Source of the DNA: Calditrichota bacterium
Lineage (GTDB): Bacteria; Zhuqueibacterota; JdFR-76; BMS3Abin05
Direction: 5' to 3'
Assembly: GCA_013151735.1 (NCBI GenBank)
Contig: JAADHR010000199.1
Span: 82,091-146,090 of the forward strand
Length of the DNA: 64,000 bases
Of this stretch, positions 19,123 to 54,049 are shown in pieces. Numbering within the stretch: position 1 is the first letter of the stretch; the number at the start of each line of letters is the position of its first letter. The position numbers were made by a program, and so were the translations under genes. Under the pieces are notes generated by a model. It was not told the origin of the DNA, did no database searches, and worked only from the letters and a program-made list of their open reading frames with translations.

Positions 19123-22100
19123 ATGAGAAAAGCTTTACGAATCACAAGCTTGATCGCGGTGCTGTTTTTAGGGATTCTGATCATTCTTTATGCGTATCTC
19201 AGAATAAAATTTCCGCCGGACAAAGTCCAAACCCTGATTTTAGAACAGCTTCGGGAAAACACCCACCGGAAGATCACGGCAACCTCCCTTCGTATTCATC
19301 CCTTTTCTGGTTTCGAATTGCACGATCTGGTTGTTTATGATACGACCCGTTTTCCCAAACGGGTTTTCCTGACCGTGAAATCCGTTCAATTGAATTATCG
19401 GCTATGGTCCCTCTTTAAGAAAAAAATTGAAATTAAACGGATTGAGGTCGTTGAACCCCATCTGTTTCTTCGCCGGAACCGAAACGGAGTCTGGAATTTT
19501 GAGGATTTGATTTCGCCTTCTGCAAATTCTCCCGCGCCGGATTCTTCTTCACAGGAATTGAAAATTCCCGGAATTGTGAAGAAAATCTCGCTTCGTTTGC
19601 GGGAGTTCTCTGTACGGGATGCGGGAATGAATGCCGAAATTGCCGATTCACTCGGAGAAGCCGTCGCAAAAATTGGCCCCATTTCTGTTCAACTGGATCA
19701 TTTTGTCCTTAAGGGACTGAATCCCGCAACCCTTCTTGATCATTTGTCCTTTCAATTGTCGGTGTTTTCCAGACGCGGAAAAATTCAGGTGTCGCTGGTG
19801 CCTGCGAGGGGTGTTCCTTTGCCCGGGTTCTTTCTAAAGAAGATCGAAGCCTCGGGGGAATGGACCCTGCAAACGGAATTCCGCACGCCCGAACAGCCGG
19901 ATTCAACCGAAGGCGACACGTTGGCGCGTCCATCCGCCCGCGTTCGTGTGGCCGGTGCGTTTCATCTGAAGCCCATGGCCATTCGGCTTTTCGGAACCCG
20001 CGTATCTTCGGCCGATTCCCTCATTCGCCTCGTCAACAACCTGCCGGACGTTCGGACTGAGCTGAAGGGTGAGGTGGCTCCGAAAACCCTTTCCGTGAAA
20101 TTCCTGAACATACAAGCAGCGGTGGGGGCTTTTTTGCGCACGGCAATTCGGGTGTCTGCCGACAGCCTCTCAAGTACTCCGGATGTGAGGGTCGCCTGTC
20201 AGCAGGGACGGGTCAACCTCACGGAACTGAGTACGTATCTCAAAACCCTTCCGCTTTTGGGTAACAATCCCCTGAAATCGGCCCGGTTGTCCGGAATAAT
20301 CGATTTTTCAGATTTTCGTGCCCGCGCAACATCTGCGGAAAACCACTTCAACGGCTCCTACCGGTTGCAGCCGCTGGTTCAGCATCTTTCACTTGCCATT
20401 CCTGAAATCGGGGCACAAATAACCCGTTTTTCTGCGAAACTTTTGGCCACCGGACAAATCAGGGATTCAAACTTTATTCGGGGAGATGTAAAGGCTTCAT
20501 TTGTTTTGCCTTCATTGTCTGTGGCTCCTGCGGAAAGCCTGGAAATTTCCGGGAAAAATATCCTCGGTTCGTCTCATTTTGTGCTGGGGAGAAATGGGGT
20601 TCCGAAAAAAATAAATTTTATGTTTTCTGCCGACAGCCTGCTGGGGGCACAAATCTCCAGTTATTCGGAATTTACAGTGGCTTCCGTTCCGTATTTGAAA
20701 AATCTGAAAATTGAGGACTTCGATGGATCGACGCAAATTCAGATCCAGGGATTGGACGTGGGGGGGATTTCAGGCGGCAGTGCCCGGGGGCATCTGAGCG
20801 CCAGCGGACTTCTGGTGGCCAGTTACGGAATGAATGCCTTTGTTCAGGCAACCGTGCATTCAAATGACCTCCAATATCGTTATGCCCCGGGTATTTTTGA
20901 ATCCCTTCCTGAAATTGATTTTACGGGAAAGGGAAATCTGAAAAGTGCACCGGGTTTTCAAAAGGTTTTTCTGAATGATTTCAGACTAACCCTCAACGAT
21001 TTTGTCAATGGGGTTATTCGCGCCACCGTTGAGCCGCTTCAGAAAAAAGCCAATGCACAATTGGAGGAATTTTCGGTTGACCTCTCCAGGGTGCGCCCCT
21101 TCCTTCCGTCGGATATTCTGGAAAGCCTTCAGTTTGCGGATTGGAATGGACGGGTGACGGTTCAGGCGGAAGCTCAGGCAGCCCTGAATCCGGAGACGGA
21201 TTCTTTGAAGGTGACCGTTAACGGACAGGCAACGGTTACGGTTCCTTATTTTATTGATTCGGAACTCCTGTTGAATGTGAATGACCTTGCCCTGCAAGCC
21301 GATTTCGGCGGTACACCGGACCATTTAAACGCCCGGTTTCAGGGCGATGTCCGATCGGCATTTTTGAGGGATGTGCTGGCAGGGCCCGTCAAAAATACAC
21401 ATTTTGAGGGCCGGGCAGAGATCAGGGATCTGGATAGCATTCACCTGAAGCATTTTTCTCTCAACCAGCCGGATCTCCACGCGGTTGTTCAGGCAAGCGG
21501 CGATGTTACCCATTTGAGCGAGACCTTTCCGCGGCTGAACCTGGCAGGCGATTTTAGCGTGCATTCCTCTCAGCCCTTTCCAACCCTTGTAGGCATAACC
21601 CTTTCAGGAAATCTTCTGGGGCATTTTCGGGTGAAAACCGATTCGCTTACTCCTGAAAATGTGTGTGCAGACGGGGCAATCACGCTTAAAGGATTTAATG
21701 TAGCCATTGAGAAAACAGCGACGATCAGAGGAATTCGCGGGGAGATTCCCTTTCGCATGGGGGTGGATATCGAAAGAAGTCTTTTAATTTCGAACAAGAC
21801 GGCTGTTCCGATTTCGCTGACGCTGTACCCGGTTTTCCAACCGTATTATTTTCGATCCGATTCTCTTTTTCGAACCATTGGCGTAGATACCATTTCTGTT
21901 TTGAATTACACGCTTACAAATCTGCGAAGCGACATCCGGGTGGAAAATGGGCGTATTTTACTGCCCAATACCCGAATAAATTTGTACGACGGAAACCTTG
22001 TTTCGCAAATGTGGTTAAATTTGGGTACGGGGCAGTTGAAGGATATGTCATACGAAATTCGGGCTCAGATTGCACGGGTAAATTCGGCCAAATTTCCCGG

Positions 22101-22488
22101 CTCGCGGAACCGGAAAAAGAAACAGTCCCAAATTGCGGCTTCTTTTCACTTTAAAGGAAAAGGCCTGGATCTTGAAAAGGGTCTGGATATACAGGGGGGT
22201 GCTGAGGTAACGGAGATTGGCCCCGCAACCACAGACAATTTGTTGAGAAGCCTGGATCCCCAGGGTCTTGACAAGAGTATTCAACAGGTGCGTCAGCTCA
22301 TTCGCTTCGGGGCAAAACCCAAGCTGATTTCCTTCCGTATCCGGCACGGAAACCTGTACCCAACGATTCTTCTGTCGCAGCCCTGGTATTATCCCTTTAA
22401 AATATCCGGCGGAAAAGTGTCGTTGGTGCGAATTCCGCTGTCGTTTGCGATTAATATGGCGCTGCAGACGTCAGAACCGATTCAGTAG
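19123..22488 (+). CDS. AsmA-like (AsmA/DUF748/YdbH-type) envelope protein
   Basis: Single N-terminal TM, FPPDKVQTLILEQL...IEVVEPHLFLRRNRNGVWNFEDL AsmA N-terminus, a long beta-rich body and an AsmA-like C-terminal region. Confidence 0.8.
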   Translation: MRKALRITSLIAVLFLGILIILYAYLRIKFPPDKVQTLILEQLRENTHRKITATSLRIHPFSGFELHDLVVYDTTRFPKRVFLTVKSVQLNYRLWSLFKKKIEIKRIEVVEPHLFLRRNRNGVWNFEDLISPSANSPAPDSSSQELKIPGIVKKISLRLREFSVRDAGMNAEIADSLGEAVAKIGPISVQLDHFVLKGLNPATLLDHLSFQLSVFSRRGKIQVSLVPARGVPLPGFFLKKIEASGEWTLQTEFRTPEQPDSTEGDTLARPSARVRVAGAFHLKPMAIRLFGTRVSSADSLIRLVNNLPDVRTELKGEVAPKTLSVKFLNIQAAVGAFLRTAIRVSADSLSSTPDVRVACQQGRVNLTELSTYLKTLPLLGNNPLKSARLSGIIDFSDFRARATSAENHFNGSYRLQPLVQHLSLAIPEIGAQITRFSAKLLATGQIRDSNFIRGDVKASFVLPSLSVAPAESLEISGKNILGSSHFVLGRNGVPKKINFMFSADSLLGAQISSYSEFTVASVPYLKNLKIEDFDGSTQIQIQGLDVGGISGGSARGHLSASGLLVASYGMNAFVQATVHSNDLQYRYAPGIFESLPEIDFTGKGNLKSAPGFQKVFLNDFRLTLNDFVNGVIRATVEPLQKKANAQLEEFSVDLSRVRPFLPSDILESLQFADWNGRVTVQAEAQAALNPETDSLKVTVNGQATVTVPYFIDSELLLNVNDLALQADFGGTPDHLNARFQGDVRSAFLRDVLAGPVKNTHFEGRAEIRDLDSIHLKHFSLNQPDLHAVVQASGDVTHLSETFPRLNLAGDFSVHSSQPFPTLVGITLSGNLLGHFRVKTDSLTPENVCADGAITLKGFNVAIEKTATIRGIRGEIPFRMGVDIERSLLISNKTAVPISLTLYPVFQPYYFRSDSLFRTIGVDTISVLNYTLTNLRSDIRVENGRILLPNTRINLYDGNLVSQMWLNLGTGQLKDMSYEIRAQIARVNSAKFPGSRNRKKKQSQIAASFHFKGKGLDLEKGLDIQGGAEVTEIGPATTDNLLRSLDPQGLDKSIQQVRQLIRFGAKPKLISFRIRHGNLYPTILLSQPWYYPFKISGGKVSLVRIPLSFAINMALQTSEPIQ

Positions 22489-22514
22489 ATGCAACGGTCA
22501 GAGGCATTAGTAAA

Positions 22515-23363
22515 ATGATGAAGAAGCCCTTAATTATTTTTTCTGCGCTGGAAAATGTGTTGGTAAACCCGCGGAGCTTTCAATGGGAGGATGCCCGGGA
22601 CATCCTCAATCGGGCGTATCTGAGAGGGATCCCCTGGGTAGTGTGGTCCCGCTGGCCTGTTCAGCAAGTGATCTATTTTCGCGGGCAGTTGGGACTCACC
22701 GATCCGTTTATTGTCGAAAGTGGAGGCGCGCTTTACATTCCCTTTGGCTATTTTGATGTTGAAATAAAGGCCGTTGAAAAAGAGGGGTGTGAGGTTATTG
22801 AAAATGGATTGCCTGTTGCGCCAATCAGGGAATTTATGGAGGAATTCAGGCGTGTGAATCATTTACCCATTCGGTTTGCTGAGGAATTTTCGGTAGAGGA
22901 ATTCGCCCAAATTGCGGGGATTCCATTGCATCTGGCGGGCTTTTACCAAAACGCCCGCTATTCACTTGCATTTTATGTGGATCCTTACGCCGGCGGGGAG
23001 TGGAGGGACAAACTAAATGTGCAGGCCTCAAAACGAGGAATCCGGATTCGAAAGGAAGGCTCGTTTTATATGGCCGTTGGAAGGAATAATGAAAGCGTTC
23101 TGGTTGCAAAATTGAAAAAGTGGTTTGAGATGAGCTGGGGTACGAACCCTGAAGTCATGGCCATTGGCGCCGCCCCTCCGGATACGCCCTATCTGAGGCA
23201 TGCGGATCGTACAATTGTGTTCAAAAACAAGGGAATGCCTGCAGCCAGTGAGCCTGCTGAAAAGGGTACGGTAACCGTGATGAGTTCGGCCAATCCGGAA
23301 AGATGGGAAGGGATTGCGAAACTTTTTGAAACAAACAGTGAGGAAGAAAGAGATGATCAATAG
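22515..23363 (+). CDS. HAD-IIB / mannosyl-3-phosphoglycerate phosphatase-like protein with degenerate catalytic motifs
   Basis: Scaffold matches MPGP (RGIP..., LGLTDPFIVESGGALYIP), but motif I reads FSALEN instead of FTDLDG and motif IV reads GAAPPD instead of GDSxND. Confidence 0.75.
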   Translation: MMKKPLIIFSALENVLVNPRSFQWEDARDILNRAYLRGIPWVVWSRWPVQQVIYFRGQLGLTDPFIVESGGALYIPFGYFDVEIKAVEKEGCEVIENGLPVAPIREFMEEFRRVNHLPIRFAEEFSVEEFAQIAGIPLHLAGFYQNARYSLAFYVDPYAGGEWRDKLNVQASKRGIRIRKEGSFYMAVGRNNESVLVAKLKKWFEMSWGTNPEVMAIGAAPPDTPYLRHADRTIVFKNKGMPAASEPAEKGTVTVMSSANPERWEGIAKLFETNSEEERDDQ

Positions 23364-24819
23364 ATTTCGAAAAGTATGGATATGGGGATTGGTTCTTCTG
23401 ATCGTTGGTGCCGTTTTGGCACCCGGTTGCGGGCAGAGGTCTCCCCGGGAGATGACCGTGCTCATTCAGGGGTCTGATGCGTACGCAAAATGGCTGCAGG
23501 AAAAATTGTCGGGTCTGGGAAAATCCTTTGGGTGGAAGATTACGGTTTCCGCCTATTTTCAGGATGAAGACCTCCTGGATATGCTTAATCTGGAAAAGGA
23601 TGGCCGTTCCAATAAAATGGGTGTGATTGAGGTCCCCCTGGAATTGTCGGATTATTTGCGCAAGAAAAAAATGATTATTCCTCTGAAACAGGCCGTGTCC
23701 GAGGAACAGTTACGGCAGGACCTCAGAATGTACGATTTTAGCCTTTTCCCGGAGGAGAACAATGCTCAAAAGGTGACTTTCCTTCCTGAACGCGGGACGC
23801 TTTTTCTAATGGCCTATTTTAAACCGGCTGTTCGCGAGGTACTCCGGGATTGGAGATTGTATGAAAGAGAGTTTTCTTTTGTCATGCAAAAATACAATCA
23901 TTGGGGGCTTCCTGTGGGGTACGCCATGGAAAAAAATCCCGAAAAATGGGATTTTTATGATTTGGCCTTTATGGCCTATTACTGGGCTGCCAAGCCCAGT
24001 CAGGGGTTGTTGATTCCCAGAATGGCGCATTCGGGGGCTCCCACAACCGGAACACTCAATGATTTGTCAACACGCGCTTTTGAATTGGGTGCTTCAACAA
24101 ATGATCTGTTCCATCCACTCAATACATCCGTGATAGACATGTTTCAATGGGAAAGCCTTTTTATAAAAGAGGGTCTTTACAATCCGGAGATGTGGGAGAA
24201 TAACTGGTTGGGAACCGATTTGATTTCTGAATTTCTATCGGAGAATATATTTCTGTCCTTCTTTGACCAATCCCAACTGTTCACGCTTTTTGGGGGGTTA
24301 GCGTCGGATACACTTCACGTTCCTCTAAAATTGAGTGAGGTTGGAATATCTACTCTCCCAAAAGGTTGTTCACTCCTGCTGGGGAAAAATCTTGTTTCTG
24401 AACGCGCGGGCAAAAAGGTGTCGGGATTCTATCTGTGGTCGCTCGGCATTCCATCCCGATTTCGAAATCCTCAATTGGCCTATAAAGTGATTCGCTTTAT
24501 AACGGGAGAAAATCTGCAGAAACAAGCCATGAACACCTTTGGGTATCTGCCGTCCCGGAAGAACATTCTTGCGGCGTCGGATTCCGTTCTGGATCGCCGC
24601 TGGAAACGGGAGATTTTTCGGGTTGTGAAAAAGCAATTAGCCATAGGTGTACAGCCATTTCCATCAGATTTCAAATGGAATAAGATTGGTGCCCTGTATT
24701 TGGCGGCATGGGAAAATATTTGTGTGGAGAAACAAACCACGCGTTGGAACGCGATTGAAAACGCGCTGAAATCCATGGATAACGAGGTGAAACAAATCGA
24801 AAAAACCGGTCAAAAATAA
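23353..24819 (+). CDS. extracellular solute-binding lipoprotein (family 1-like, sugar-binding type)
   Basis: Lipobox-like LAPG-C; SBP-like C-terminus (WSLGIP...NPQLAYKVIRFITG..LQ...FGYLPSRK). The start overlaps the upstream stop. Confidence 0.7.
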   Translation: MINRFRKVWIWGLVLLIVGAVLAPGCGQRSPREMTVLIQGSDAYAKWLQEKLSGLGKSFGWKITVSAYFQDEDLLDMLNLEKDGRSNKMGVIEVPLELSDYLRKKKMIIPLKQAVSEEQLRQDLRMYDFSLFPEENNAQKVTFLPERGTLFLMAYFKPAVREVLRDWRLYEREFSFVMQKYNHWGLPVGYAMEKNPEKWDFYDLAFMAYYWAAKPSQGLLIPRMAHSGAPTTGTLNDLSTRAFELGASTNDLFHPLNTSVIDMFQWESLFIKEGLYNPEMWENNWLGTDLISEFLSENIFLSFFDQSQLFTLFGGLASDTLHVPLKLSEVGISTLPKGCSLLLGKNLVSERAGKKVSGFYLWSLGIPSRFRNPQLAYKVIRFITGENLQKQAMNTFGYLPSRKNILAASDSVLDRRWKREIFRVVKKQLAIGVQPFPSDFKWNKIGALYLAAWENICVEKQTTRWNAIENALKSMDNEVKQIEKTGQK

Positions 24820-24848
24820 GTGCTTTTGTCACAGCGAAGGAGGCAAAA

Positions 24849-25409
24849 ATGAAAAAGGTCATAGGGTTTGGACTGTTGGCGATTCTGAGTGTCGGATTAT
24901 ACAGCTGCAGTATCAAAGCCCCCGAAGTCACCATTACAGGTGAGAAAACAACCCTTGAAAAGCAGGTTGAGGGGACGTATCAGGAGATTGAGAACGATGC
25001 CGATATGGTGGCCTCTACCCGGGCCCTTGAGGGCAAGCGGAAACCGGTGATGTCCATTGAAAAACGGCTGGTTTTAAAAGCCATTCAGAATCGCAAATTC
25101 AATCAGGATGATGTGGAAGAATTTAAACGCATGGGGATTTTTGGCGAAAATAATCAGGGACTACTGGAAATACGGAACCCGGATAAATTGGAAAAGAACC
25201 CGGAGCTCAAGAAACGGGCCCTCATGATTCTAAATGAAGAAAATCATGATCGTAAAATTATTATGAATCGAATTATCCAGGTAAACGAGAATCTAAAGAA
25301 CGCTTCTCCGGAAGAGGTTCAAGCCGTTTTTGCAAAAATGAATCGCGAGAATTCCAGACCCGGAACATGGATTCAGCTTCCAAATGGAAAATGGGTGAAA
25401 AAGAAATAA
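24849..25409 (+). CDS. DUF1318 / YdbL-family lipoprotein
   Basis: Lipobox LYS-C; GIFGENNQGLLE, EENHDRKIIM and PGTWIQLPNGKWVKK are DUF1318 motifs; AGGAGG RBS. Confidence 0.85.
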   Translation: MKKVIGFGLLAILSVGLYSCSIKAPEVTITGEKTTLEKQVEGTYQEIENDADMVASTRALEGKRKPVMSIEKRLVLKAIQNRKFNQDDVEEFKRMGIFGENNQGLLEIRNPDKLEKNPELKKRALMILNEENHDRKIIMNRIIQVNENLKNASPEEVQAVFAKMNRENSRPGTWIQLPNGKWVKKK

Positions 25410-25604
25410 CCCTTATTCAGGGTTGGCCGTGCATTTTCTCGCATGAATCGGCACGTTTTCAACCCAGTTTAATTAAGCGTGGGGAAGCGGATGTTTACGC
25501 GTGAGGCGAAAGGGAAATGACGGGCTTTCCGCGAGCGTCAGGTCATGGCAGTAAGGGGTTTTCGCGTGTTTGAAAAGGACGTCAAATAAAAAAGGATTAT
25601 TTGT

Positions 25605-28600
25605 TTGCGTTTCAAGACCCAAAATCAGTTTTCCATCCTTCAGATTTTTCCGTTTTTTGCAGGATTTTTGTTGGCTGTTCTCTGGGCTTCAACGGCCGTA
25701 TCGCAGGAAGCCGGACTTTCTTCCTATTATGAAAAATTGTTTTCTCCGCGCTTGGAGGGGCTGCAGCACCTAACGACCCACCCGAAAAATGATATCTTTC
25801 CTTCGCTTTCACCCCGGGGGAAGTGGCTGGTGTTTGCCTCGGACCGCAATCAAAACTATGACATCTGGGCCAAAAACACTCAGACGGGAGACCTGTTTCA
25901 ACTCACCACTCACAAAAGTGAAGACACTCAGCCGGTCTGGTTTCCAAACGGGAAACAAATTGTTTTTATCTCCAAACGATCGGATGGGTTGGGAGATCTG
26001 TATCTTCTTTCTGTGCGCCTCTTTCGGGGTTATCTCCTCTCAAAAAAAACGACGCAATTAAACGACTATCTGGGGTACGATGGCGAGCCGGCCGTCTCTC
26101 CCGACGGGAAATGGGTGGCGTTTGTCAGTGACCGGCAAACCGGACGAAAAAATATCTGGCTCCTGAGAATGAAAACCCGCAAGGTCTTTCAGGTAACGAC
26201 CAACGGCGGATTCTCGCCGGCATTTTCTCCGGGAGGCCGGTGGCTGACCTTTACCAAATTCTCGAAGGGACGCTGGCAAATTGTTAGAATCCCGTTTTCT
26301 CCCGAAGAATTTCCTGTCTCTCCCGAAAAGGAATCTGTTGTTTTTTCGTCAGGCAATCCTTCAGGTTTTTCCGCCTGGAGCGATTCATCCCACATTTTAG
26401 TCGTAACCTATCCCTACGACACCAACGGGGATGGGAAGAAAACGGTTTCAGATCATGGTGTTCTGGTCGAATGTTCCTCAACCCCGCCAAAAGACGGCCA
26501 TTTTGACGAAGCCAATCTTCCGGTGTTTAAAACCTCGGGAATCTGGGGATCCTATTTTCCCGTTTGGGGGAAAACCGGGAAGATCCTTTTTTCATCGGAC
26601 TTTGAGGGAAATAAGGATATCTGGGCCATGGAGCCGTTTGGCGAGATTCGCATTCCGGATACCCCCTGGGCCATTTCAGCGTTTGCCGAGCAGAAATTTC
26701 CCCTTCAACCGGTGCGGTATTTTCAGGTTCTGAATGATTCTTCGTTTCAAACGGTCTGGCGGAGAGCCCGAAAGACCTACCTCTTGCAGCGCCTGTTTGT
26801 TTTGAGAAAGGGTTTACAGCGTGCCCAGGGCTCCCCGGATTTCTTTTCTCAATTTGCCTTTAAAATGGGAGAGACGGCGGAAAAGCTCGGCTGGAACAAC
26901 TTAGCCGACACGTATTATTCCCGGGCCATTCAGGATGGGGCAACGCAGACTCCCTGGGCGCTCCGGGCGCAACTGGCGCTCTGGAGGTTGGGTACCCTTC
27001 ACCCGGCCGCTGAAATGGTTGAAATCGATTCGCTTCTTTCCCAGACAATTCGGGACAAGACGTCCCGGGCGCTGCTGTATCTGGAACAGGCAAGGCTTTT
27101 CAGGAAACTGGGAAAATACAATCAGTCGCTGGAAAGGCTTCAATCCGTCCTGAATGAAAAAGCCATTGCCGTGGATGTAATTTTTCGTGCGGGCCTTATG
27201 CTGGGGGAAATCTACACGGAACTACAGAATTTTCAATTGGCTGTCAAAACAGAGGCCGCTCTTCTGCGCCTGCACCCCGATGCCTTTTACTGGAATCAGG
27301 TGGTTCTTCAAAAAATAAAATGGATCCTGTCTCAAAATCCGGAGTGGTCCGATCCGGTTCAGGAGTATCAGTTTTTTATTCAAACCTATTCGGACATCCC
27401 GCAGCTCGCCGCATGGGCTCAATACGAGATCGGGTACACGTACGAGAAGCAGGGAGATTTTCGGGTAGCCATTCGTGAATTCGTGCGTACCCGGACCCAC
27501 TATTCCACGGAGCGGGAAGCCTATTTCAGGGCGACCGTTGGTTTGATTGCAATAAACCATTTCATGAAGGATTCGCAGGCTCTGATTCGCGTGTGCCGGG
27601 AGACGCTTCAAAAGGGCACTCTTTTGGATTCCACACAGGTCTGGTGGGTACGGCAGAATTTGGTTCGTGCCCTGTTGAATAAAGGGGAAAAACTCCTTTC
27701 ACAAAATGACTGGCAACTGGCACGTTCGGCTTTTCAATCGGTGCTTGCAACCGATTCCCTGAATGTAGAGGCCCACCGGGGGATTGTGAAGTGTGCCGAC
27801 CGGGGAAATCAATTAGCAGCCGTAATCGGTCACTATCGGGAGAAAATCCTCAAAAGTCCCGAAAATGATGTTTACCTGTACACCCTGGGTCTGGCCTATT
27901 CTTATCTGGCAACGCGGCAGGAGCGGCTTTCGGAGGAATATCGTCTTTTGCGGCTTTCAAATCGTTACCTCGAAAACGCCCTCAAGCGTAATTACCGGTT
28001 GGTTTACGCGTACCTGACACTGGGATTCAATTATGAAACTCTGGCGGGCCTGGAGCGAATGCTGAAAAATCAAAAGGAACCGTTGGTTTCGCGCATTACA
28101 AAGGGTGTTCTGGCTCCGGTCTTCTGGGCCGTTCGGACGCTTACGTTCCAAAAAGCCCCCGCACAACACCTCTGGTATGAAAAAGCCATTGACCTTCTCA
28201 CCGTAGGTGTGTCCATTAATAACGAGAAAAAAAATCCGACCTTAGAGGCCCAGCTCACCCTGAATTTGGCCAATAATTATTATCAAATGGGTGAATTTGG
28301 TTTTGAGAAGGCCTTTCATTACTACCGCATCCGCATGCAATTGGACTCCACATTCCGCTCCGTTCAGCAAGAAGCGCTTGTGTATGAGCGGATGGGGCAT
28401 TGCGCCATTATCCTCGAAAACTGGCCGGAAGCGGTAAAGGATATTTCGAAAGCGATTTCACTGTATCGGCAGCAGAAAAACACCCCGAAAATTCTGGAAA
28501 ATACGGATCGTCTGGCCTGGGCCTATTTCATGTCGGGGGAGTACGATCTTGCGGTTGAAAACTATCTGGATATTCTGAGAACGGTGCGAACGCTTCAAAA

Positions 28601-31600
28601 TCTCCCGGAAAAGGAACGAACCCTGGAGAGACTCCATCGGAATTTGGCCAATGCGTATCTGTATTTACACGATTTTCGGAGTTCGCTGAAGCATTTGCAA
28701 ATCGCATTAAATCTCCTGGATTCGGGGAAGATCAAGGACAAGCATTCGTTAAAAGGATATTTGCGCATCGAGTTTTTGGGTTACTCCATCCCGGTTTTTA
28801 ATATCAACAAACTTCTTGAACAAGGGGGAAGTAAAGGGGTGTTAACCGTGGCCGATGAGCGGGCCCTTCTCTACACGCTTCTAAAAAAGAATTATGTCGA
28901 ACAAAAGTATCTCTTACAGGCCATCCGGGTTTTGGAAGAAAAGAGAAGGCTGTTTCACCAGAAGAAAGACCATTTGGCCGAGGCGGTTACCGAAAATAAT
29001 CTGGGGTTTCTCTACTCCTTTTATGGGGATTATGAAAGTGCCTGGAAAAAATTTAGTCGTTCATTTTCCATTTGCCGGGATAGGAAGTATTGGTCCGGTG
29101 CGGTGATTAATCTTAATAATATCGCCCGACTGACCCTTGCTTTTTGGACAAAAGAAAAACTGACCGGAGAAACGCCGCAAACCATTACGGTGGATTACAA
29201 GCGGGTTTTGGCCCTTCTGATGACGGGCCGCAGCTATCTGGAAAACATTCCCTATGGAATGGCCAAAGAACGGGTGGCCCTGTTGTACCAGACAGGAATT
29301 TTGAAAACACTTTTGTATCTTTTGCCGTTGCGCACGCAGCAGGACACGTCATCGGTACGCACGATTCAGCGTTACGCGGCGGCCACAGACGTTTTGCAAA
29401 TTTATGGCCGCGCGCTGGACTGGGCGGCACGGCTGCATTTGATGCGCGAACAAATTATTCTTCGGAAAAATCGGGCGGATATTTATCTGTTCTTGGGGTG
29501 GCCGGACGAAGCCAGAGCCGATCTGCAGGCCGCCCGGCAGCTGGCTCTTCAAACAGGAGCCTCCAATTTGCTGTGGCGGATCGATTTTGCAATGAGTACC
29601 CTGAGTCAGCCGGGGGAAAGGCCCCTGGCACCTGATTCGACCGCCTTCCGCTTGCTTGAAGAAGCCGTTCAGATTCTCGAAACGACACCGGACACAACCG
29701 GAGGTCGCCAGTTTATTGGCGAGCCCCGCCTGGATCAGGAACTTGTGTACGAAACCTACTTGAACAAGGAGGCTCGTGCCGGGCGGGTGAAGAAGGCCCT
29801 TGAAATCAGTGAGAGGCGTGAAGAAAAGTGGTTTTTGGATGATCTGAGCGGATACAGGCTGAAATTGAAATTGGAATCGCACAAAATATTTTACGGCAAT
29901 GCCCGCTATTTACTCCTTGAAATAGCCCGGCAGAAAAACAGCCTGCGAGAATTGTCGGCTCGAAAAATCCCCGATATTAAGCGTCAATCCCGCATAAAGG
30001 CTCATCTGGACAGTCTTCAGACAGAATACACGCAGATGATCCGGCAGTACCTTCAGACCGAACCCGAATTGGTTGCACTTGTTCAGCCCGTTACCATTCC
30101 GGTCAAAAAGATTCAGGCCATTTTAAAACCGCGTACCGCGTTGATCAGGTATGATCTGGGTCTGAAAGACAGCTGGGCCTGGATGGTAACACGCGACACC
30201 GTTTTGCAGGCAGCCCTGCCGGTTTCGAAGGCGGAGGTGGTTTCGCGTGCCAAAAAAGCCCTGGCAATGAAAGGAGTCTGCGCGGAACCCGATTCAAATT
30301 TTCACTGGCTAAGCCAAAATTTGATTGATCCGCTCCTCAAGCAAGGCCAGCCCTTTTCGCGGCTCATTTTTGTTCCGGACAGAAGCCTGCTGGAATTTCC
30401 CTTCGGTCGTTTACCTTACAAAAACGGGTGTCTTTCCGATTCTGTTTCCATTCAGTATGCTGCGGATTTAATGAGTTTCTATTTTCAGTTTCAGAAGAGG
30501 CATATCCCCCAGAAAAAAATCGCATTTGTTTCCCCGGGAAAGGCCGTATTTGATTTTTCGGTTCCTTCCAAAGCAACCCTGGTACGGGATGTCCGGCGGT
30601 CAGCCACAGAGCTAAATCTCCGAAAGGTGGTGCAGGATGCGGATATCATTCACCTGAAGGTACCACTCCTTACGGATCGGTTTCAGCCCATGCGGATGGC
30701 ATTTGGATTGCGCTATCCAAATGTGAAATGGCGCAAAATGTCCACACTGATTTCACCTTTTCCTCCAAACAACGACGGCCGGCTTCACATGCACGAGGTT
30801 TTCGGATTGGATTCCCGGGCAAATGTGCTGATTCTCGAGAGGGATCCTTCTCAAGGGCAGACTCCAATTCCCTCGTCCGATTTAATGACCCTTGTTCATG
30901 CGTTTACTTACGCCGGGGTTCCCTCGTTTATCTTCCAGATGCACACTCTTCCCGAAAAAGCCAGGCGCCTGTTTTTTAATGAATTTTACAAGCACGTGTT
31001 TACTGAGCGTCCCTTTGACGCATTCGAAATGGCTCAGAAGAAAGTCAGGCAGGTTTTCCCCGATCCGGATGTGTGGGATGCGTATCGTTGGTTTGGATTT
31101 GAAGGCATGTCCCCCGGGGAGGAGGTGCAATTTGCAAAGAGCCGGCTCAACCGGATGTTTGCAATGGGGTACCGTTTTGCACAGAAGGGCTACTGGTGGG
31201 ATGCCATTCGCAATTATGAGCAGGCCCTCCGGATGGCCAAGCTGCTGAAACAAACGGCGAAGGTGGTTATTCTGTATCAGCAATTGGTAGAGGCAAGTGC
31301 CAATGGAAAATACTGGCCGCGCGCCGCCCATTATCAAGAGCTTTTGAATCGGTTTTACGAAAATCAAAAAGACTGGGAATCTCTTCTGGAAGGAACCCAT
31401 GCGGCGCTGGTTTTTTACAGTCACCTCCACAATCGAAAAAAAATGGCTTTCTACCAAAAGAAATACGAAAAATTGCTGGCCCAGTTGGGGACGCATGCGG
31501 AACAGGCACAGGCCTTTCGGCAAATTGCGCTCTTGCAGGAGCGAAATAAGAATTACTCCGAGGCGCTTTCCTTTTTGAAAAAGGCCCTCCGGATCTACCA

Positions 31601-34019
31601 AAAACTGGGAAAACCGGCTGAAAGCGCACAAATTCTGCTGGATTTGAGTCGGATTCATCTGAAATATCTGGATGCCTACAGTCAGGCCATTGCGTATGCT
31701 GAAAAGAGTTTGTCGCTTGTTAAGAATGAACCCCCTGCAAAAATACACATGCGAATTTACCAGTATCTGGGGCTGGCGTACGAGAAAATTGGTTCGTACC
31801 AAACATCGCTTGATTTCCAGATGAAAGCGGCGGCGTTGTCTCGAAACCTTGGGAATTTGAGTGATCAGGGACTGGAACACCAATTTTTGGCCAACATTTA
31901 CTGGAAGATGGGAGATTACCTCCACGCCCTGAAAGAGCAGGAGAAGGCCATCGAGATCTTCCAAAAATTGAAGGACCCCCGGCTCTTGAAACTGGCCTAT
32001 TCAACCAAAGGCCTTATTTTCATGAGTTTGAATGAAATTCCAAAGGGCCTGTCCCTTGAAATGCAGGCCCTGGCTCTGGCCAGATCCCTTGGGGACAGCC
32101 TGGACGAAGCGACTATTCTTAAAAACATTGGCAACGGATATGCCCGGCAGGCCAATTGGGATTCTGCCCGAACAGCCTATCGGCAGGCGATAAAAATTGA
32201 CAGTCTGATTTCGGCCAAACGGGGACTGGGGTACGATTTTCGAAATCTGGGTCTTTTCTTTTTGCAGGAGAAAAAGAATAAAGCGGCATTGGGGTATATG
32301 AAGCGGGCCCTTGCCATGAGCCGGCGCATTCGCGACCGCCGGAATGAGGCGTCCTGTTTATTGGGATTGGGGCGTATCTATCACCAAATGGGCCGGGTGG
32401 ATTCCGCCCTTGCGTATGGGAAAGAGGCCGTTCGTTTGGCGCAACAATTGGAAATCCCGGAAATCACCTGGCAGGCCTTTGAGTTTTTAGGGGACACCTG
32501 GACACAGAGGGATTCATTGCAAAAGGGCTTGCAGGCGTACGAAAAAGCCATTGATGTGATTGAAAAACAACGCGCGCAGATTCGGGTGGAAAGTTTTCAA
32601 ACCGGCTTTCTGGCGGATAAAATGGGGGTGTACGGGAAGGTCATCAATTTGCTGGTGCGACAGCATAAACCGCGGAAAAGCTTCGAATTTGCAGAGCGGG
32701 CAAAATCCAGAAGCTTTATCGACATGCTGGGCAATCGAAAAATAAATTTTCGGGAGGGCGCCGATTCAACAGCTCTAAAACAGGGAAATCACATCCAGAA
32801 TACCATTCAACGGTGGCAAAACATTCTGGCGCAAGTGTACCAAACACCCGAAATGACGCCCGCTCTGAAAGACAGTATTTCCCGCATCCGCGCCACGCTT
32901 GACCGCTTGCGAGCCCGTTACCGGGATTTTTTGGATCGGCTTCGAATGGACAATCCGGAACTGGCGTCGATGGTGTCTGTGGAGCCGTTTCGGGTCGGGG
33001 ACATTCAACGCTCTCTCGACGACTCAACAGCGCTTTTGGCGTATTACGTTCTTCCCAAAAAACTGATTCTCTGGACGCTTCGGAAAGATACCATCGCCGT
33101 GTCGTCTGTACCGATTTCCTCCAAAAAATTGATTAATCTGGTCAGGATGTTTCGGGCGGATTTGCAGAAGAAACTTCCCATTGATGACCAGGCCAGGCGC
33201 CTGTACCGTATTCTCATTCGTCCGGCGGGAAATTTTCTGAAACCGTGCTCGCAGCTCATTCTGGTGCCGCACGGTGTGCTTCATTATCTGCCCTTCGGGG
33301 CCCTGATGGACGGCAAGGGCCGATATGTGCTGGAGCGGTTCCGTCTGGCAAATGCCCCCAGCGCCACGGTCCTGAAATTCTGCCTGCAAAAGGGGGATCA
33401 TTTTCAAAAGACAAAAGGCGTTATCCGAAAGGTTCTGGCCGTTGGTGATCCGGATTTGGGTAATCCTCGCTACGACCTGCCGTTTGCCGAAAAAGAGGCG
33501 GAAAGCCTGAAACGCACCTTTTCGGAAACAACCGTTCTTTTGCGAAAACGAGCAACGGAAACCCGGGTAAAACGGATTATCGGAGAATATGACCTGGATC
33601 TCTTTTCGACCCACGGGGAATATGACCCGGTGAATCCGCTTTTTTCGGCCCTGCGGCTGACGCCCGACTCCTTGAACGACGGCCGTCTGGAAGCGTGGGA
33701 AATATTTGGCCTTCGGATGAACGCATTTTTGGTCACAATGAGCGCCTGCGAAACGGGTCTGGGAAAGATAACCCGAGGAGATGAAGTGATCGGGTTATCG
33801 CGCAGTTTTATTTTTGCGGGAACACCTGCCGTGGTAGCCTCCCTCTGGAAGGTCGATGATCTGACAACGGCAGTCATTATGAAGCGATTTCATCGGTACC
33901 TGCATCAGGGGCTTTCCCGGGCTCAGGCCTTGAAAGAGGCTCAAAACTATGTCCGGCAGTACATCCATCCGTATCCCTATTTCTGGGCGGCGTTTTATCT
34001 GACGGGGGATCCGCGGTAG
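25605..34019 (+). CDS. 2804-aa exported PD40/TolB-like propeller - TPR - CHAT (inactive) - TPR - CHAT (intact) protein
   Basis: Signal-peptide-like N-terminus; repeated PSLSPRGKWLVFASDR / PAVSPDGKWVAFVSDR PD40 units; long TPR arrays; C-terminal CHAT with STHG (His2670) and SACETG (Cys2715); internal CHAT-like domain lacking both. Confidence 0.88.
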   Translation: MRFKTQNQFSILQIFPFFAGFLLAVLWASTAVSQEAGLSSYYEKLFSPRLEGLQHLTTHPKNDIFPSLSPRGKWLVFASDRNQNYDIWAKNTQTGDLFQLTTHKSEDTQPVWFPNGKQIVFISKRSDGLGDLYLLSVRLFRGYLLSKKTTQLNDYLGYDGEPAVSPDGKWVAFVSDRQTGRKNIWLLRMKTRKVFQVTTNGGFSPAFSPGGRWLTFTKFSKGRWQIVRIPFSPEEFPVSPEKESVVFSSGNPSGFSAWSDSSHILVVTYPYDTNGDGKKTVSDHGVLVECSSTPPKDGHFDEANLPVFKTSGIWGSYFPVWGKTGKILFSSDFEGNKDIWAMEPFGEIRIPDTPWAISAFAEQKFPLQPVRYFQVLNDSSFQTVWRRARKTYLLQRLFVLRKGLQRAQGSPDFFSQFAFKMGETAEKLGWNNLADTYYSRAIQDGATQTPWALRAQLALWRLGTLHPAAEMVEIDSLLSQTIRDKTSRALLYLEQARLFRKLGKYNQSLERLQSVLNEKAIAVDVIFRAGLMLGEIYTELQNFQLAVKTEAALLRLHPDAFYWNQVVLQKIKWILSQNPEWSDPVQEYQFFIQTYSDIPQLAAWAQYEIGYTYEKQGDFRVAIREFVRTRTHYSTEREAYFRATVGLIAINHFMKDSQALIRVCRETLQKGTLLDSTQVWWVRQNLVRALLNKGEKLLSQNDWQLARSAFQSVLATDSLNVEAHRGIVKCADRGNQLAAVIGHYREKILKSPENDVYLYTLGLAYSYLATRQERLSEEYRLLRLSNRYLENALKRNYRLVYAYLTLGFNYETLAGLERMLKNQKEPLVSRITKGVLAPVFWAVRTLTFQKAPAQHLWYEKAIDLLTVGVSINNEKKNPTLEAQLTLNLANNYYQMGEFGFEKAFHYYRIRMQLDSTFRSVQQEALVYERMGHCAIILENWPEAVKDISKAISLYRQQKNTPKILENTDRLAWAYFMSGEYDLAVENYLDILRTVRTLQNLPEKERTLERLHRNLANAYLYLHDFRSSLKHLQIALNLLDSGKIKDKHSLKGYLRIEFLGYSIPVFNINKLLEQGGSKGVLTVADERALLYTLLKKNYVEQKYLLQAIRVLEEKRRLFHQKKDHLAEAVTENNLGFLYSFYGDYESAWKKFSRSFSICRDRKYWSGAVINLNNIARLTLAFWTKEKLTGETPQTITVDYKRVLALLMTGRSYLENIPYGMAKERVALLYQTGILKTLLYLLPLRTQQDTSSVRTIQRYAAATDVLQIYGRALDWAARLHLMREQIILRKNRADIYLFLGWPDEARADLQAARQLALQTGASNLLWRIDFAMSTLSQPGERPLAPDSTAFRLLEEAVQILETTPDTTGGRQFIGEPRLDQELVYETYLNKEARAGRVKKALEISERREEKWFLDDLSGYRLKLKLESHKIFYGNARYLLLEIARQKNSLRELSARKIPDIKRQSRIKAHLDSLQTEYTQMIRQYLQTEPELVALVQPVTIPVKKIQAILKPRTALIRYDLGLKDSWAWMVTRDTVLQAALPVSKAEVVSRAKKALAMKGVCAEPDSNFHWLSQNLIDPLLKQGQPFSRLIFVPDRSLLEFPFGRLPYKNGCLSDSVSIQYAADLMSFYFQFQKRHIPQKKIAFVSPGKAVFDFSVPSKATLVRDVRRSATELNLRKVVQDADIIHLKVPLLTDRFQPMRMAFGLRYPNVKWRKMSTLISPFPPNNDGRLHMHEVFGLDSRANVLILERDPSQGQTPIPSSDLMTLVHAFTYAGVPSFIFQMHTLPEKARRLFFNEFYKHVFTERPFDAFEMAQKKVRQVFPDPDVWDAYRWFGFEGMSPGEEVQFAKSRLNRMFAMGYRFAQKGYWWDAIRNYEQALRMAKLLKQTAKVVILYQQLVEASANGKYWPRAAHYQELLNRFYENQKDWESLLEGTHAALVFYSHLHNRKKMAFYQKKYEKLLAQLGTHAEQAQAFRQIALLQERNKNYSEALSFLKKALRIYQKLGKPAESAQILLDLSRIHLKYLDAYSQAIAYAEKSLSLVKNEPPAKIHMRIYQYLGLAYEKIGSYQTSLDFQMKAAALSRNLGNLSDQGLEHQFLANIYWKMGDYLHALKEQEKAIEIFQKLKDPRLLKLAYSTKGLIFMSLNEIPKGLSLEMQALALARSLGDSLDEATILKNIGNGYARQANWDSARTAYRQAIKIDSLISAKRGLGYDFRNLGLFFLQEKKNKAALGYMKRALAMSRRIRDRRNEASCLLGLGRIYHQMGRVDSALAYGKEAVRLAQQLEIPEITWQAFEFLGDTWTQRDSLQKGLQAYEKAIDVIEKQRAQIRVESFQTGFLADKMGVYGKVINLLVRQHKPRKSFEFAERAKSRSFIDMLGNRKINFREGADSTALKQGNHIQNTIQRWQNILAQVYQTPEMTPALKDSISRIRATLDRLRARYRDFLDRLRMDNPELASMVSVEPFRVGDIQRSLDDSTALLAYYVLPKKLILWTLRKDTIAVSSVPISSKKLINLVRMFRADLQKKLPIDDQARRLYRILIRPAGNFLKPCSQLILVPHGVLHYLPFGALMDGKGRYVLERFRLANAPSATVLKFCLQKGDHFQKTKGVIRKVLAVGDPDLGNPRYDLPFAEKEAESLKRTFSETTVLLRKRATETRVKRIIGEYDLDLFSTHGEYDPVNPLFSALRLTPDSLNDGRLEAWEIFGLRMNAFLVTMSACETGLGKITRGDEVIGLSRSFIFAGTPAVVASLWKVDDLTTAVIMKRFHRYLHQGLSRAQALKEAQNYVRQYIHPYPYFWAAFYLTGDPR

Positions 34020-38421: not shown

Positions 38422-40026
38422 ATGGCTCTGGATATCAAAATGGTTTTTGATGAGATTTTTCAACACAGGGAAACGGTTCGAGTGTTGAATTCGGTTTGTC
38501 GAATGAACCGCCTGTCTGCAAAAATTCTGAATACCCATGGTTCGGTTTTGTGGACCTTCCCCGAAAATGTGTCCGATGGTGATCCCGCCACATACCCGGT
38601 TACCTATCAGGATATCCTGCTTGGCGAATTACAGTTGCAACCCCAGACTGGAAAAACAAAACGAAAATCCTTATTGGATAAGGCGGCCGAAGCACTGCAC
38701 CAAATTCTTCAATTGTGCATGGCCAATGAGTATGAGCTTGAAAATTTATCAGAAGAAATTCTGGATAAGTATGAAGAAATCAATCTCCTGTTTGAAATGA
38801 GTGAATCGCTGGGGGCCATCTTCGAGCTTCAATTGATTTATGAAATTCTCCTGGATAAAATTGTTCAGGCACTGGATGTCAAAAAGGCCAGTATTCTCAG
38901 CTATGATGAAACCAATGATCGGCTTGTGCTGGAAGCTTCCCGCGGGCTGCCGAATGAAATTATTAAAATTGTTGTGCCGATTGAAGGAACCGTCAGCGGG
39001 TATGTGCTCAGGAGAGGGGCTCCGCTTCTTGTTGAGGATATTGGTCATTTGCCGCAAGAGATCCATCCGAATGTAGAGGGGAGATATTCCAGCTTCGGAT
39101 TTATTTCCGTTCCTATGCTGTGTTCGCCCGTAAAGGTAAGGGATAAACGAATAGGGGTTATCAATGTAACGGATCGACGGGATGGCCGCCCGTTCTCCAC
39201 GAATGATTTAATGCTTTTAAACAGTATTTCCTCCATTGCCGCAATATCCATTTATAATGCCCATCTTATTGAGGAACTAAAAGATACCGAGCGCGTTCAC
39301 CGGGAACTGGAAATCGCCGAAACCATCCAGATGAGTTTGTTGCCGTCACAGCCGCCATCCGTTGCCGGACTGGATATTTACGGGGATTGTAAAACGGCCA
39401 AAAATGTGGGGGGGGATTATTTTGATTATTTCAAGAATGAACAGGGCTGTGTAGACATGATTATTGCCGATGTCTCCGGGCACAGCATCGGATCGGCTCT
39501 GATGATGGCCATTTCCAGAAGCGTGATGCGATCGGTTATTCAACAGGAACATTCAGTGGCCGACATTTTGAAGCAAACCAACCACCTTCTTTTCCCGGAT
39601 TTGGATCGTGCGGGCCTGTTTATTTCCTTGTTTTTGGGGCGGTACAATCCGCAAACCCGCTGGTTTAGTTATGGAAATGCCGGACATCCTCCCCTGTTGG
39701 TTTACAAAGCGGCCACCAAAGAGGTTATTGAGTTGGATGCCGAGGGAATGATCATCGGCATTCTGGATCAAATGGATTTTGAAGAAAAGAACATACGTTT
39801 GGATGTGGGAGATATCATCGTTTTTTATACAGACGGAATTATGGAAGCGGTCAATCCGTACAAGGAGCAATTTGGCCTGGATCGTCTTGCAGAAATTATC
39901 AAGATCTTCCACGATGAATCAGCCAGAGATATCGTCCATAATCTTTATAATCAACTGGATATCTTTGTAAATCGAAAAGAACAGGAAGATGATGTGACCG
40001 TTATCGTTGCCAAAGTGACCGAATGA
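38422..40026 (+). CDS. GAF-containing PP2C/SpoIIE phosphatase (RsbU-like)
   Basis: GAF domain, then VGGDYFD, IADVSGHS, FYTDGIMEA and DDVTVI. Confidence 0.93.
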   Translation: MALDIKMVFDEIFQHRETVRVLNSVCRMNRLSAKILNTHGSVLWTFPENVSDGDPATYPVTYQDILLGELQLQPQTGKTKRKSLLDKAAEALHQILQLCMANEYELENLSEEILDKYEEINLLFEMSESLGAIFELQLIYEILLDKIVQALDVKKASILSYDETNDRLVLEASRGLPNEIIKIVVPIEGTVSGYVLRRGAPLLVEDIGHLPQEIHPNVEGRYSSFGFISVPMLCSPVKVRDKRIGVINVTDRRDGRPFSTNDLMLLNSISSIAAISIYNAHLIEELKDTERVHRELEIAETIQMSLLPSQPPSVAGLDIYGDCKTAKNVGGDYFDYFKNEQGCVDMIIADVSGHSIGSALMMAISRSVMRSVIQQEHSVADILKQTNHLLFPDLDRAGLFISLFLGRYNPQTRWFSYGNAGHPPLLVYKAATKEVIELDAEGMIIGILDQMDFEEKNIRLDVGDIIVFYTDGIMEAVNPYKEQFGLDRLAEIIKIFHDESARDIVHNLYNQLDIFVNRKEQEDDVTVIVAKVTE

Positions 40027-40037
40027 GAGAGGAGAAA

Positions 40038-40562
40038 ATGCTCAGCAACCGATCAGACGCCATACTTGAACAGATTTCCCGGACAAACAAGTCCGATTCC
40101 AAGGCATTGAGTCAGCCGAAAGATGCCTATATTGCGTTTCGCATTTTCAATGAATACTTTGCGCTCCCCATCCAGAATGTGCGCTATTCCATGCCCATTG
40201 GAAAAATCACCCCCGTTCCGGATGTTCCGCGATTTTTGCTGGGCATTACAAACGTTATGGGCGAGATTATTTCGGTGGTAGACATATTCGACTTTATTTT
40301 TCAAAAGCCCCTTCCACTGGATCAGCAAAAGTGTTTTTTATTGCTGATTAAATGGAAAGACATTGATACAAGTTTTGTGGTGTCCGATCTCATGGATATG
40401 CTTTTGTTCGAAAAGTCTGAAATTCAATCCGATCTGCTTCCGCTGAGTAAGGAAAAAAGACGCTATTTTGTTGGGGGGGCATTTTGGGAGGGAAAAATTA
40501 TTGGCGTTTTGAATCTTGAAAATATTTTGGCATCAGAAAGAATGCGGTTTGGTGAAGATTAG
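40038..40562 (+). CDS. cheW: CheW adaptor
   Basis: ITPVPDVPRFLLGITNVMGEIISVVD; RBS before ATG 40038 (ORF open from 40023). Confidence 0.88.
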   Translation: MLSNRSDAILEQISRTNKSDSKALSQPKDAYIAFRIFNEYFALPIQNVRYSMPIGKITPVPDVPRFLLGITNVMGEIISVVDIFDFIFQKPLPLDQQKCFLLLIKWKDIDTSFVVSDLMDMLLFEKSEIQSDLLPLSKEKRRYFVGGAFWEGKIIGVLNLENILASERMRFGED

Positions 40563-40688
40563 ATGGCGGACTATTTATTCCCCGGCATCTGCCGGTATCC
40601 GGGAAAGGGAGGAACACCCGTTACCCGTTTGGGTGAGGTTTGGACCGTTTGAGTTGGCTGCAAGTCATCAATAAGTGTGGAGTTTAAC

Positions 40689-47095: not shown

Positions 47096-47108
47096 TGTGG
47101 TTAGAGGA

Positions 47109-49869: not shown

Positions 49870-49933
49870 TTCCTGCGGAAAGATTCTCGATAAGGAACAA
49901 AATGGCAGGCGTACAGAAATCCAGCAGAGGCCA

Positions 49934-52061: not shown

Positions 52062-52269
52062 CCCGGCCGTTTTTCAGCCCCGGTTTTAGGGCCGGGGATA
52101 GCCTGCACAAAAAACAGGGGTCCGGCAGACAAATTCTTCCGGCCTGATAGAAAGAAGGAGCTCCAGTATTTTTGGAGATCGGTGGGTGATGCAGCCTGCA
52201 GATGGCATTGCCTCGTGCAGTGTCTGCCATTTTTGACAAAAACAGGACTTGAAACGCGCGATTGGTATT

Positions 52270-53967: not shown

Positions 53968-54049
53968 TTCCTGTGGAAATACCTTTTTGCGGAAACGATA
54001 CCTCACGGGTCAATTTTGAACGGGATTCCAATCAAAAAGTGAAGTCAGA

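Follow-up and report, generated by a model that had tools for sequence, protein, structure and literature searches.

A locus in the genome of a Calditrichota bacterium raises the question of whether an AsmA-like gene, a DUF1318 gene, and a gene for a giant PD40/TPR/CHAT protein encode parts of one envelope system or are simply neighbors. We analyzed a window of 64,000 nt (assembly GCA_013151735.1, contig JAADHR010000199.1, positions 82,091 to 146,090, forward strand), and coordinates given below without a locus label are those of this window. On its + strand, the AsmA-like gene (19123-22488) is followed by a HAD-IIB-like gene (22515-23363), a solute-binding protein (SBP)-like lipoprotein gene (23353-24819), the DUF1318/YdbL-fold lipoprotein gene (24849-25409), and the giant gene (25605-34019). 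An earlier note on this DNA had read the 5 genes as a single system, an AsmA/YdbL-type bridge coupled to an exported scaffold protease, with a pseudo-phosphatase and an SBP that might gate the machine. Its intergenic gaps of 26, -11, 29, and 195 bp agree exactly with the open reading frame (ORF) coordinates, and its AsmA, DUF1318, and PD40/TPR/CHAT domain calls were upheld by Pfam and NCBIfam. Its count of 4 membrane-anchored or exported products was also borne out, with a single N-terminal hydrophobic segment found by hydropathy scan in the AsmA-like, SBP-like, DUF1318, and giant proteins and a predicted transmembrane segment or signal in all but the HAD-like protein. The central idea of a bridge with a scaffold protease stands, whereas the 5-part composition does not. 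On comparison of loci, the conserved unit is a core of 3 genes (AsmA-like, DUF1318, and giant), with the HAD-like and SBP-like genes outside it. The evidence that these genes are associated by more than chance comes from other genomes and not from the window itself, where co-orientation carries no weight because nearly every gene of the 64 kb lies on the + strand.

Gene linkage was examined in loci mapped with family hidden Markov models (HMMs) built for this analysis and labeled here with an L and a number. A genome scan, restricted to 1 genome per species, returned 40 loci, mostly from KSB1/Zhuqueibacterota and otherwise from Calditrichota, Delongbacteria, and GN15; it used a single peptide pattern, and divergent lineages are undersampled. 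The identified carriers are known from metagenome assemblies only. Among 21 giant loci with at least 5 kb of sequence on both sides, the AsmA-like gene was identified in 17, the DUF1318 gene in 15, and at least 1 of the 2 in 19. The DUF1318 gene lay just upstream of the giant gene in 28 of the 38 loci whose upstream sequence reaches 900 bp or more. Conversely, among metagenome loci found with the DUF1318 alignment as query, the N-terminus of the giant lies downstream in 39 of the 51 that extend 1 kb or more past DUF1318, and an AsmA-like gene lies upstream in 15 of the 32 that extend 3.5 kb or more before DUF1318. The DUF1318 and giant genes abut or overlap in most related loci, and they often lie within 100 bp of each other. 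The AsmA-like gene, 2.4 kb upstream of DUF1318 in the window, is directly adjacent to it in many related loci. Homologues of the DUF1318 protein pointed to candidate division KSB1, and an exact search of public assemblies for the window protein gave no match. One relative, with 56% identity by DUF1318, has the AsmA-like gene, a glycerate kinase gene, a homologue of the 488-aa SBP-like gene, the DUF1318 gene, and a gene for a 2871-aa PD40/TPR/CHAT giant, the start of which overlaps DUF1318. At 36% identity by DUF1318, another relative has the DUF1318 gene abutting a 2765-aa giant gene among unrelated genes, with a FecR-domain gene next.

Because most loci come from a single phylum, the argument rests on deep lineages, differing flanks, and rearrangements. 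A bare trio of AsmA-like, DUF1318, and giant genes, often with overlapping ORFs, was identified in distant lineages in which the giant is only about 19-31% identical to that of the window. These include a genome found from distant giant homologues (giant 26% identical), a Zixibacteria metagenome-assembled genome (MAG) (21% identical), an 825-kb contig, a Spirochaetota MAG and 2 further metagenome contigs, and the trio is also present in many KSB1 and Calditrichota genomes. In L133, Pfam misses both neighbors of the giant gene, and the family HMMs match them at E 5.7e-37 and 2.4e-38. Linkage is also kept where the order has changed, with the arrangements DUF1318-giant-FecR-AsmA or giant-FecR-AsmA found in L020, L021, L022, L037, and L048. 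The neighborhood comparison that the earlier note had put forward as its check thus came out in its favor, with the giant CHAT gene co-occurring with DUF1318 and AsmA-like genes in several phyla, also after reordering. Domain identities, export signals, and this cross-phylum gene linkage are direct observations.

The 186-aa product of the DUF1318 gene (24849-25409) matched DUF1318 (PF07027) over aa 87-185 with 47.1 bits against a cutoff of 27, and its profile aligned with E. coli YdbL in hhalign (probability 93%, E 2.6e-7). An AlphaFold2 (AF2) model reached a predicted local distance difference test score (pLDDT) of 83.8, and its best match in the PDB was the 2026 crystal structure of E. coli YdbL (28oj), with a target-normalized TM score of 0.82, a root-mean-square deviation of 2.6 A, and a probability of 1.00. 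In order, the protein comprises a lipobox Cys20 (..GLYSC) that is invariant in 24 homologues, a conserved extension at aa 20-58, a linker, and the YdbL-like domain at aa 87-185. The extension after the lipidated Cys has the motif 'CS-x-K-x-PE-x-x-x-TGEKTALE-x-Q-x-x-G-x-Y', and both extension and lipobox are kept across KSB1, Zixibacteria, and Spirochaetota. In the AF2 model, confidence is low for residues 21-30, and a helix is modeled with confidence at residues 35-58. All giant-linked DUF1318 members are predicted lipoproteins, unlike YdbL. All 24 aligned sequences carry an Arg opposite YdbL R61, and in the window protein and the family consensus the residue before this Arg is acidic and aligned to E60; in E. 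coli, E60 and R61 of YdbL have been reported as contacts to YnbE (PMC13464000). YnbE itself consists of a lipid anchor, a strand that augments YdbH, and then an acidic helix bound by YdbL, and the extension of the lipoprotein resembles this layout (lipid anchor, extended segment, acidic helix) by analogy of arrangement only. No YnbE-family Pfam match to the lipoprotein was obtained at E<=1, and the gaps of the locus contain no ORF of the size of ynbE. In a minority of cases, a lipoprotein-type DUF1318 gene lies away from any giant gene and is followed instead by an ORF of roughly 310-360 aa (L071 4798-6428, L072 9749-11427, and L074 8509-10892).

The AsmA-like gene (19123-22488) encodes 1121 aa, with an N-terminal transmembrane segment at aa 2-31 in the hydropathy scan (anchor at aa ~7-29). 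Over aa 1-190, the protein matched Pfam AsmA (PF05170) with 64.5 bits (cutoff 29.8) and DUF748 (PF05359) with 66.1 bits (cutoff 50). Past the transmembrane helix, the AF2 model, built from a 7-sequence alignment, consists almost entirely of long beta strands; its mean pLDDT is 54, with aa 670-880 at 70-88. The C-terminus of the family, at aa ~1010-1105, is strongly conserved in the consensus of 20 homologues. A PDB profile search with the family returned no useful match to a solved structure by sequence.

The giant gene (25605-34019) starts at a TTG codon and encodes 2804 aa. Its product consists of a signal peptide (aa 1-33), a PD40 beta-propeller (~40-350), a TPR array (~420-1050), a region without a domain call (~1051-1566), a first CHAT domain (CHAT1, 1567-1826), a second TPR array (~1960-2330), and a second CHAT domain (CHAT2, 2529-2802). 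CHAT1 and CHAT2 matched the CHAT family (PF12770) with 53 and 216 bits, respectively. The public gene call (2782 aa) begins 22 codons after TTG 25605 and thereby loses the signal peptide; the TTG start, with AGGA 9 nt upstream, restores it through the extra segment 25605-25670 and agrees with the N-termini of orthologues. No hydrophobic segment follows the N-terminal signal (maximum KD19 1.45 beyond residue 60), and homologues start with signal peptides or lipoboxes. The giant family is thus predicted to be exported, as the earlier note had proposed for the window protein. The family is colinear, with homologues of about 2,450-2,870 aa. A search of 1.84 billion representatives with the central region of the giant matched at least 77 clusters (50% identity) at E<=1e-30; almost all of these are colinear and 2.5-2.9k aa long, and existing annotation offers nothing beyond 'TPR/CHAT domain protein'. 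The closest solved structure to CHAT2 by sequence is Csx29, a weak match (E 0.0019). In Leptospiraceae, we observed PD40-TPR lipoproteins of roughly 2,700 aa that are distantly related to the giant and lack CHAT; the 1 such locus inspected (L009 10001-18028, from a Leptospiraceae MAG) has no AsmA-like or DUF1318 neighbors.

The earlier note had read the giant as a protease. The predicted caspase-type catalytic dyad of CHAT2, His2670 (codon 33612-33614) and Cys2715 (codon 33747-33749), spans 33612-33749 on the + strand and is kept in 17/21 aligned members, within the motifs 'FSTHGEYD' and 'MSACETGLG'. In CHAT1, none of the 21 aligned members has the catalytic Cys, and this domain appears dead throughout. 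The giants of Zixibacteria and Spirochaetota do without the CHAT2 dyad, though both are still in trios, and protease activity may therefore be inessential. As trios are kept even where the dyad is broken, scaffolding is probably the conserved role of the giant.

We propose that the AsmA-like protein, the YdbL-like lipoprotein, and the giant form a conserved 3-protein envelope module, a bridge resembling YdbH/YnbE/YdbL with a periplasmic scaffold/protease partner, and we regard the chances for and against this proposal as evenly balanced. In such a module, the AsmA-like protein would be an inner-membrane-anchored, periplasm-spanning bridge of the AsmA family type, and the DUF1318 lipoprotein would serve as its outer-membrane-side partner or assembly factor. 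No separate ynbE is present, and the lipid anchor of the lipoprotein, together with its conserved N-terminal segment and helix, may stand in for YnbE. The giant would act as a periplasmic scaffold that binds the lipoprotein and/or the conserved C-terminus of the AsmA-like protein, and, where CHAT2 is active, it could trim or remove unengaged components, as DegP does with free YdbL in E. coli. We infer the physical interaction, lipid transport, protease substrate, and outer-membrane localization in this scheme, and we rate the specific protease-substrate idea much less than the module as a whole. In a bolder version, the giant would be a stoichiometric structural partner of the bridge, recruited by the YdbL-like lipoprotein to serve as the terminus or collar on the outer-membrane side, and its own caspase-like protease would license the bridge or take it apart; this version is tentative, and we doubt that it holds. 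If it did, the module would be the first bridge for lipid transfer to have a protease/scaffold subunit of its own, and the YdbL fold would be a general adaptor for AsmA-like machines far beyond Proteobacteria.

Several results weigh against the 3-protein module. Homology ties 2 of the 3 parts to the E. coli bridge, but the likeness is incomplete, as the AsmA-like protein is not an orthologue of YdbH (hhalign probability 0.3% for a 20-sequence profile against E. coli YdbH) and ynbE is missing. Pfam found no C-terminal AsmA_2, TamB DUF490, or YdbH-like domain in the AsmA-like protein, the confidence of its AF2 model is low, and Foldseek with this model returned uninformative matches to ApoB100 and LptD. 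The idea that the lipoprotein is a YnbE-YdbL fusion was rejected (hhalign probability 0.4% for the extension against E. coli YnbE) and is kept as an analogy only. The window itself has 2 unrelated genes between the AsmA-like gene and DUF1318 and a spacer of 195 bp between DUF1318 and the giant gene. As to its content, this spacer (25410-25604, + strand) contains no + strand terminator-like or promoter-like site, in a promoter scan that was sigma-70-based and may not suit the host phylum, and no ORF of more than 24 codons. Partners are also missing elsewhere: 12/51 DUF1318 loci have no giant gene, L029 and L043 have DUF1318 and giant genes without an AsmA-like gene within 8-10 kb, L020-L022 and L048 have giant and AsmA-like genes without DUF1318, and L008 and L009 have the giant gene with neither partner. 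Further, most sampled genomes belong to 1 phylum, and synteny within it reaches past the trio, the window and L001 sharing upstream UDPGP and MscS genes; loci of this phylum are therefore not independent.

Some of these results fit an account in which the functional unit is only the pair of DUF1318 lipoprotein and giant, with the lipoprotein tethering, chaperoning, or inhibiting a scaffold/protease that acts on other envelope substrates, and in which the AsmA-like gene is a frequent neighbor left from an ancestral ydbH/ydbL-type arrangement and has an independent function. The DUF1318-giant junction is the tightest of the locus and recurs in the 39/51 DUF1318 loci counted above, the pairs of L029 and L043 have no AsmA-like gene on either side, L005 has none in 7.8 kb of upstream sequence (with only 1.7 kb of sequence downstream), and in the window the 2 inserted genes part the AsmA-like gene from the pair. 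This account does not easily explain why the AsmA-like gene stays linked where rearrangement has put it downstream of the giant gene (L020-22, L037, and L048), why it is adjacent in every deep trio lineage sampled, or why giant and AsmA-like genes are also found together without DUF1318, and taken as a whole we consider it unlikely. That the genes have no functional tie and owe their proximity to chance or to inherited synteny in a one-strand region is already disfavored and, in our view, very improbable. The co-orientation of the whole window, the UDPGP and MscS synteny shared with L001, and the predominance of 1 phylum among the comparison genomes would all fit it, but linkage is kept where the giant is only about 19-26% identical and the flanking genes are entirely different, it survives insertions and order changes, and overlapping stop and start codons are common.

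A different function for the giant, as a periplasmic sensing or signaling device that detects an envelope or phage-derived protein and responds by proteolysis, with output through FecR-domain or response-regulator proteins, has a precedent in DdvA, a periplasmic TPR-CHAT protein (PMC11506125). It would also fit the FecR-domain gene found directly after the giant gene in L005, L020-22, L037, L047, and L048 and near it in L132, as well as the receiver-domain genes just downstream in several loci, of which that of L132 overlaps the stop codon of the giant gene. Set against this, there is no extracytoplasmic function (ECF) sigma gene at the locus and no anti-sigma domain or transmembrane segment in the giant, housekeeping genes in stable synteny surround the locus, some trios have lost the catalytic dyad, and the enrichment of receiver-domain genes is biased, the search model having been built from the same genes. 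A defence-system reading of the locus was rejected, as PADLOC returned a generic TPR match alone. We consider a sensing device distinctly improbable, less so than an arrangement without any functional tie.

The proposed 3-protein module can be compared with several known systems. AsmA-like proteins of E. coli are inner-membrane-anchored grooved bridges implicated in phospholipid transport; among them, YdbH requires the outer-membrane lipoprotein YnbE, and YdbL is chaperone-like, binding the C-terminal helix of YnbE and controlling its docking onto YdbH (PMC11126948, PMC13464000). Free YdbL is degraded by DegP (PMC13464000). The 3 genes form an operon, ydbH-ynbE-ydbL. The present locus shares with this system a gene for an AsmA-like inner-membrane protein beside one for a DUF1318/YdbL-fold periplasmic protein; an Arg aligned to R61 is invariant in the lipoprotein family alignment and follows an acidic residue aligned to E60, and in E. 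coli a periplasmic protease, DegP, sets YdbL levels. In contrast, the locus has no ynbE, its DUF1318 protein is itself a predicted lipoprotein with a conserved 65-residue extension, its AsmA-like protein is not YdbH-like and has about 1,100 aa compared with 879, and the third partner encoded with them is a giant PD40-TPR-CHAT protein, to which nothing in E. coli is comparable.

For the giant alone, TolB offers an exported PD40 beta-propeller (TIGR02800 88 bits, far under the cutoff of 343), but the likeness is confined to the propeller repeats; the giant has no TolB N-terminal domain, and no tol-pal genes are adjacent. The TPR-plus-CHAT architecture is the same as in Craspase Csx29 and separase. 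Proteases of this type are cytoplasmic and are controlled by RNA-guided Cas7-11 or by securin, whereas the giant has a signal peptide and the locus has no CRISPR genes (no cas genes were identified in the window annotation). The description of CHAT proteases as cytoplasmic in the earlier note needs qualifying, as the Myxococcus anti-sigma factor DdvA carries a periplasmic TPR-CHAT module with a His/Cys dyad (PMC11506125), and in this the giant resembles it. DdvA is a single-pass membrane protein of roughly 1,000 aa with a cytoplasmic zinc anti-sigma domain and an ECF sigma partner, and it regulates defence genes (PMC11506125). The giant, in contrast, is predicted to be secreted without a transmembrane segment and has 2,800 aa, a PD40 propeller, 2 TPR-CHAT units, and no adjacent sigma gene; no sigma or anti-sigma domain was found in the giant or in its neighbors in the window.

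The YdbH-YnbE-YdbL bridge and periplasmic TPR-CHAT proteins are already known, and the locus differs from that bridge in the missing YnbE, the lipidated, extended YdbL, the AsmA-like protein not of YdbH type, and the giant partner. The earlier note knew of no characterized system of such composition, and in agreement with this, full-text searches of the literature turned up neither a description of the module nor a paper in which DUF1318 or AsmA-like proteins are connected with CHAT proteins. The transport of phospholipids to the outer membrane is incompletely understood, and AsmA-like bridges with their helpers YnbE and YdbL have been characterized only in 2021-2026 and only in E. coli. The present loci point to an ancient pairing of AsmA-like and YdbL-like proteins, spread over distant diderm phyla with a different set of partners, and provide a natural comparison for the general role of YdbL-fold proteins. 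They also suggest that proteolytic control of bridge assembly may be hard-wired in some lineages, which echoes the link between DegP and YdbL, and they give a first testable context to a large giant family that has so far had no specific annotation.

The 2 genes inserted in the window between the AsmA-like and DUF1318 genes are, on the distribution of their homologues, local passengers or lineage-specific inserts outside the conserved core. The HAD-IIB-like protein (22515-23363, + strand) resembles mannosyl-3-phosphoglycerate phosphatase, with a best NCBIfam score of 106 bits against a cutoff of 165 and matches in the PDB as well. It reads 'IIFSALENVLV' (FSALEN) in place of DxDxT, so that the nucleophile Asp is missing, and 'GAAPPD' in place of GDSxND; the first of these replacements is also kept in L011, the sole HAD-like orthologue found. 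The label of pseudo-phosphatase given to it earlier is thus fair, but a part in the system is not supported, as family HMM mapping found the gene only in the window and L011 and not in most trios, and the product is predicted to be cytoplasmic, with no signal peptide in the hydropathy scan. Its slot is taken by a glycerate kinase gene (DUF4147/MOFRL) in L001-L004 (L001 7101-8447), and in L028 the slot gave neither a HAD-like nor an SBP match. Compatible-solute metabolism of the glycerate type is the common theme of the degenerate mannosyl-3-phosphoglycerate phosphatase homologue and the glycerate kinase, and the window and L001 also share UDPGP and MscS genes a short way upstream. The slot may belong to an osmoadaptation context separate from the trio.

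The SBP-like lipoprotein gene (23353-24819, + strand) is accessory and encodes 488 aa from an ATG inside an ORF that opens at TTG 23314. Its product has a lipoprotein-type signal ending ..LAPGC and matched no Pfam family above threshold, SBP_bac_8 reaching E 0.017 over a C-terminal stretch only. A 3-sequence profile matched the family-1 SBP 5ci5 in part (E 1.4e-5), along with maltose/trehalose binding proteins. No ABC transporter genes were identified in the neighborhood. Because homologues are restricted to near relatives of the window (L001-4, L011, L028, and L052), the suggestion that the machine is gated by the SBP finds no comparative support.

Outside the core, 1 subclade has a gene for a FecR-domain protein of roughly 260-320 aa directly after the giant gene, identified in L005 (16192-16998), L020 (19073-19864), L021 (18915-19718), L022 (18185-19153), L037 (11540-12316), L047 (19166-19990), and L048 (18505-19329). 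The AsmA-like gene follows it in L020, L021, L022, L037, and L048 (in L020 after 1 more ORF), and the contigs of L005 and L047 stop shortly past the FecR gene. A FecR-domain gene is also near the giant gene in the Spirochaetota locus L132 (18685-19713), and the FecR-domain protein may be a fourth, lineage-specific component.

Other neighbors were also seen. A gene for a PMT_2 (GT-C-type glycosyltransferase-like) membrane protein lies between DUF1318 and giant genes in 2 KSB1 genomes (L014 5674-7218 and L039 8259-9857). Receiver-domain genes immediately follow the giant gene in L132 (17371-18576, a response regulator-SpoIIE gene), L001 (19324-19719), L011, and L039; the apparent enrichment of such genes downstream of the giant (0.069 vs 0.010 per kb, ~sevenfold) is distrusted for the bias of the search model already described. 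In the Zixibacteria locus L007 (2349-5663), an LptD gene, which also serves outer-membrane biogenesis, was seen, once, 2 genes upstream of the trio, in the order LptD, HU, AsmA-like, DUF1318, giant.

In the window, the upstream flank carries the housekeeping genes Lon, UDP-glucose pyrophosphorylase-type (the UDPGP gene referred to above), and MscS, with a TrkA-C gene on the minus strand, and the downstream flank carries aminotransferase and sigma-54 response regulator genes. Further downstream (38422-48623, 49015-51610, and 52249-58976), a chemosensory cluster encodes a SpoIIE-GAF phosphatase, CheW, 2 methyl-accepting chemotaxis proteins, a CheA-CheW-receiver hybrid, CheB, and CheR-TPR. It is followed by genes for an HDOD protein and a GAF/PAS histidine kinase and by type IV pilus/type II secretion system genes (T2SSE, T2SSF, and a PilM-PilN fusion).

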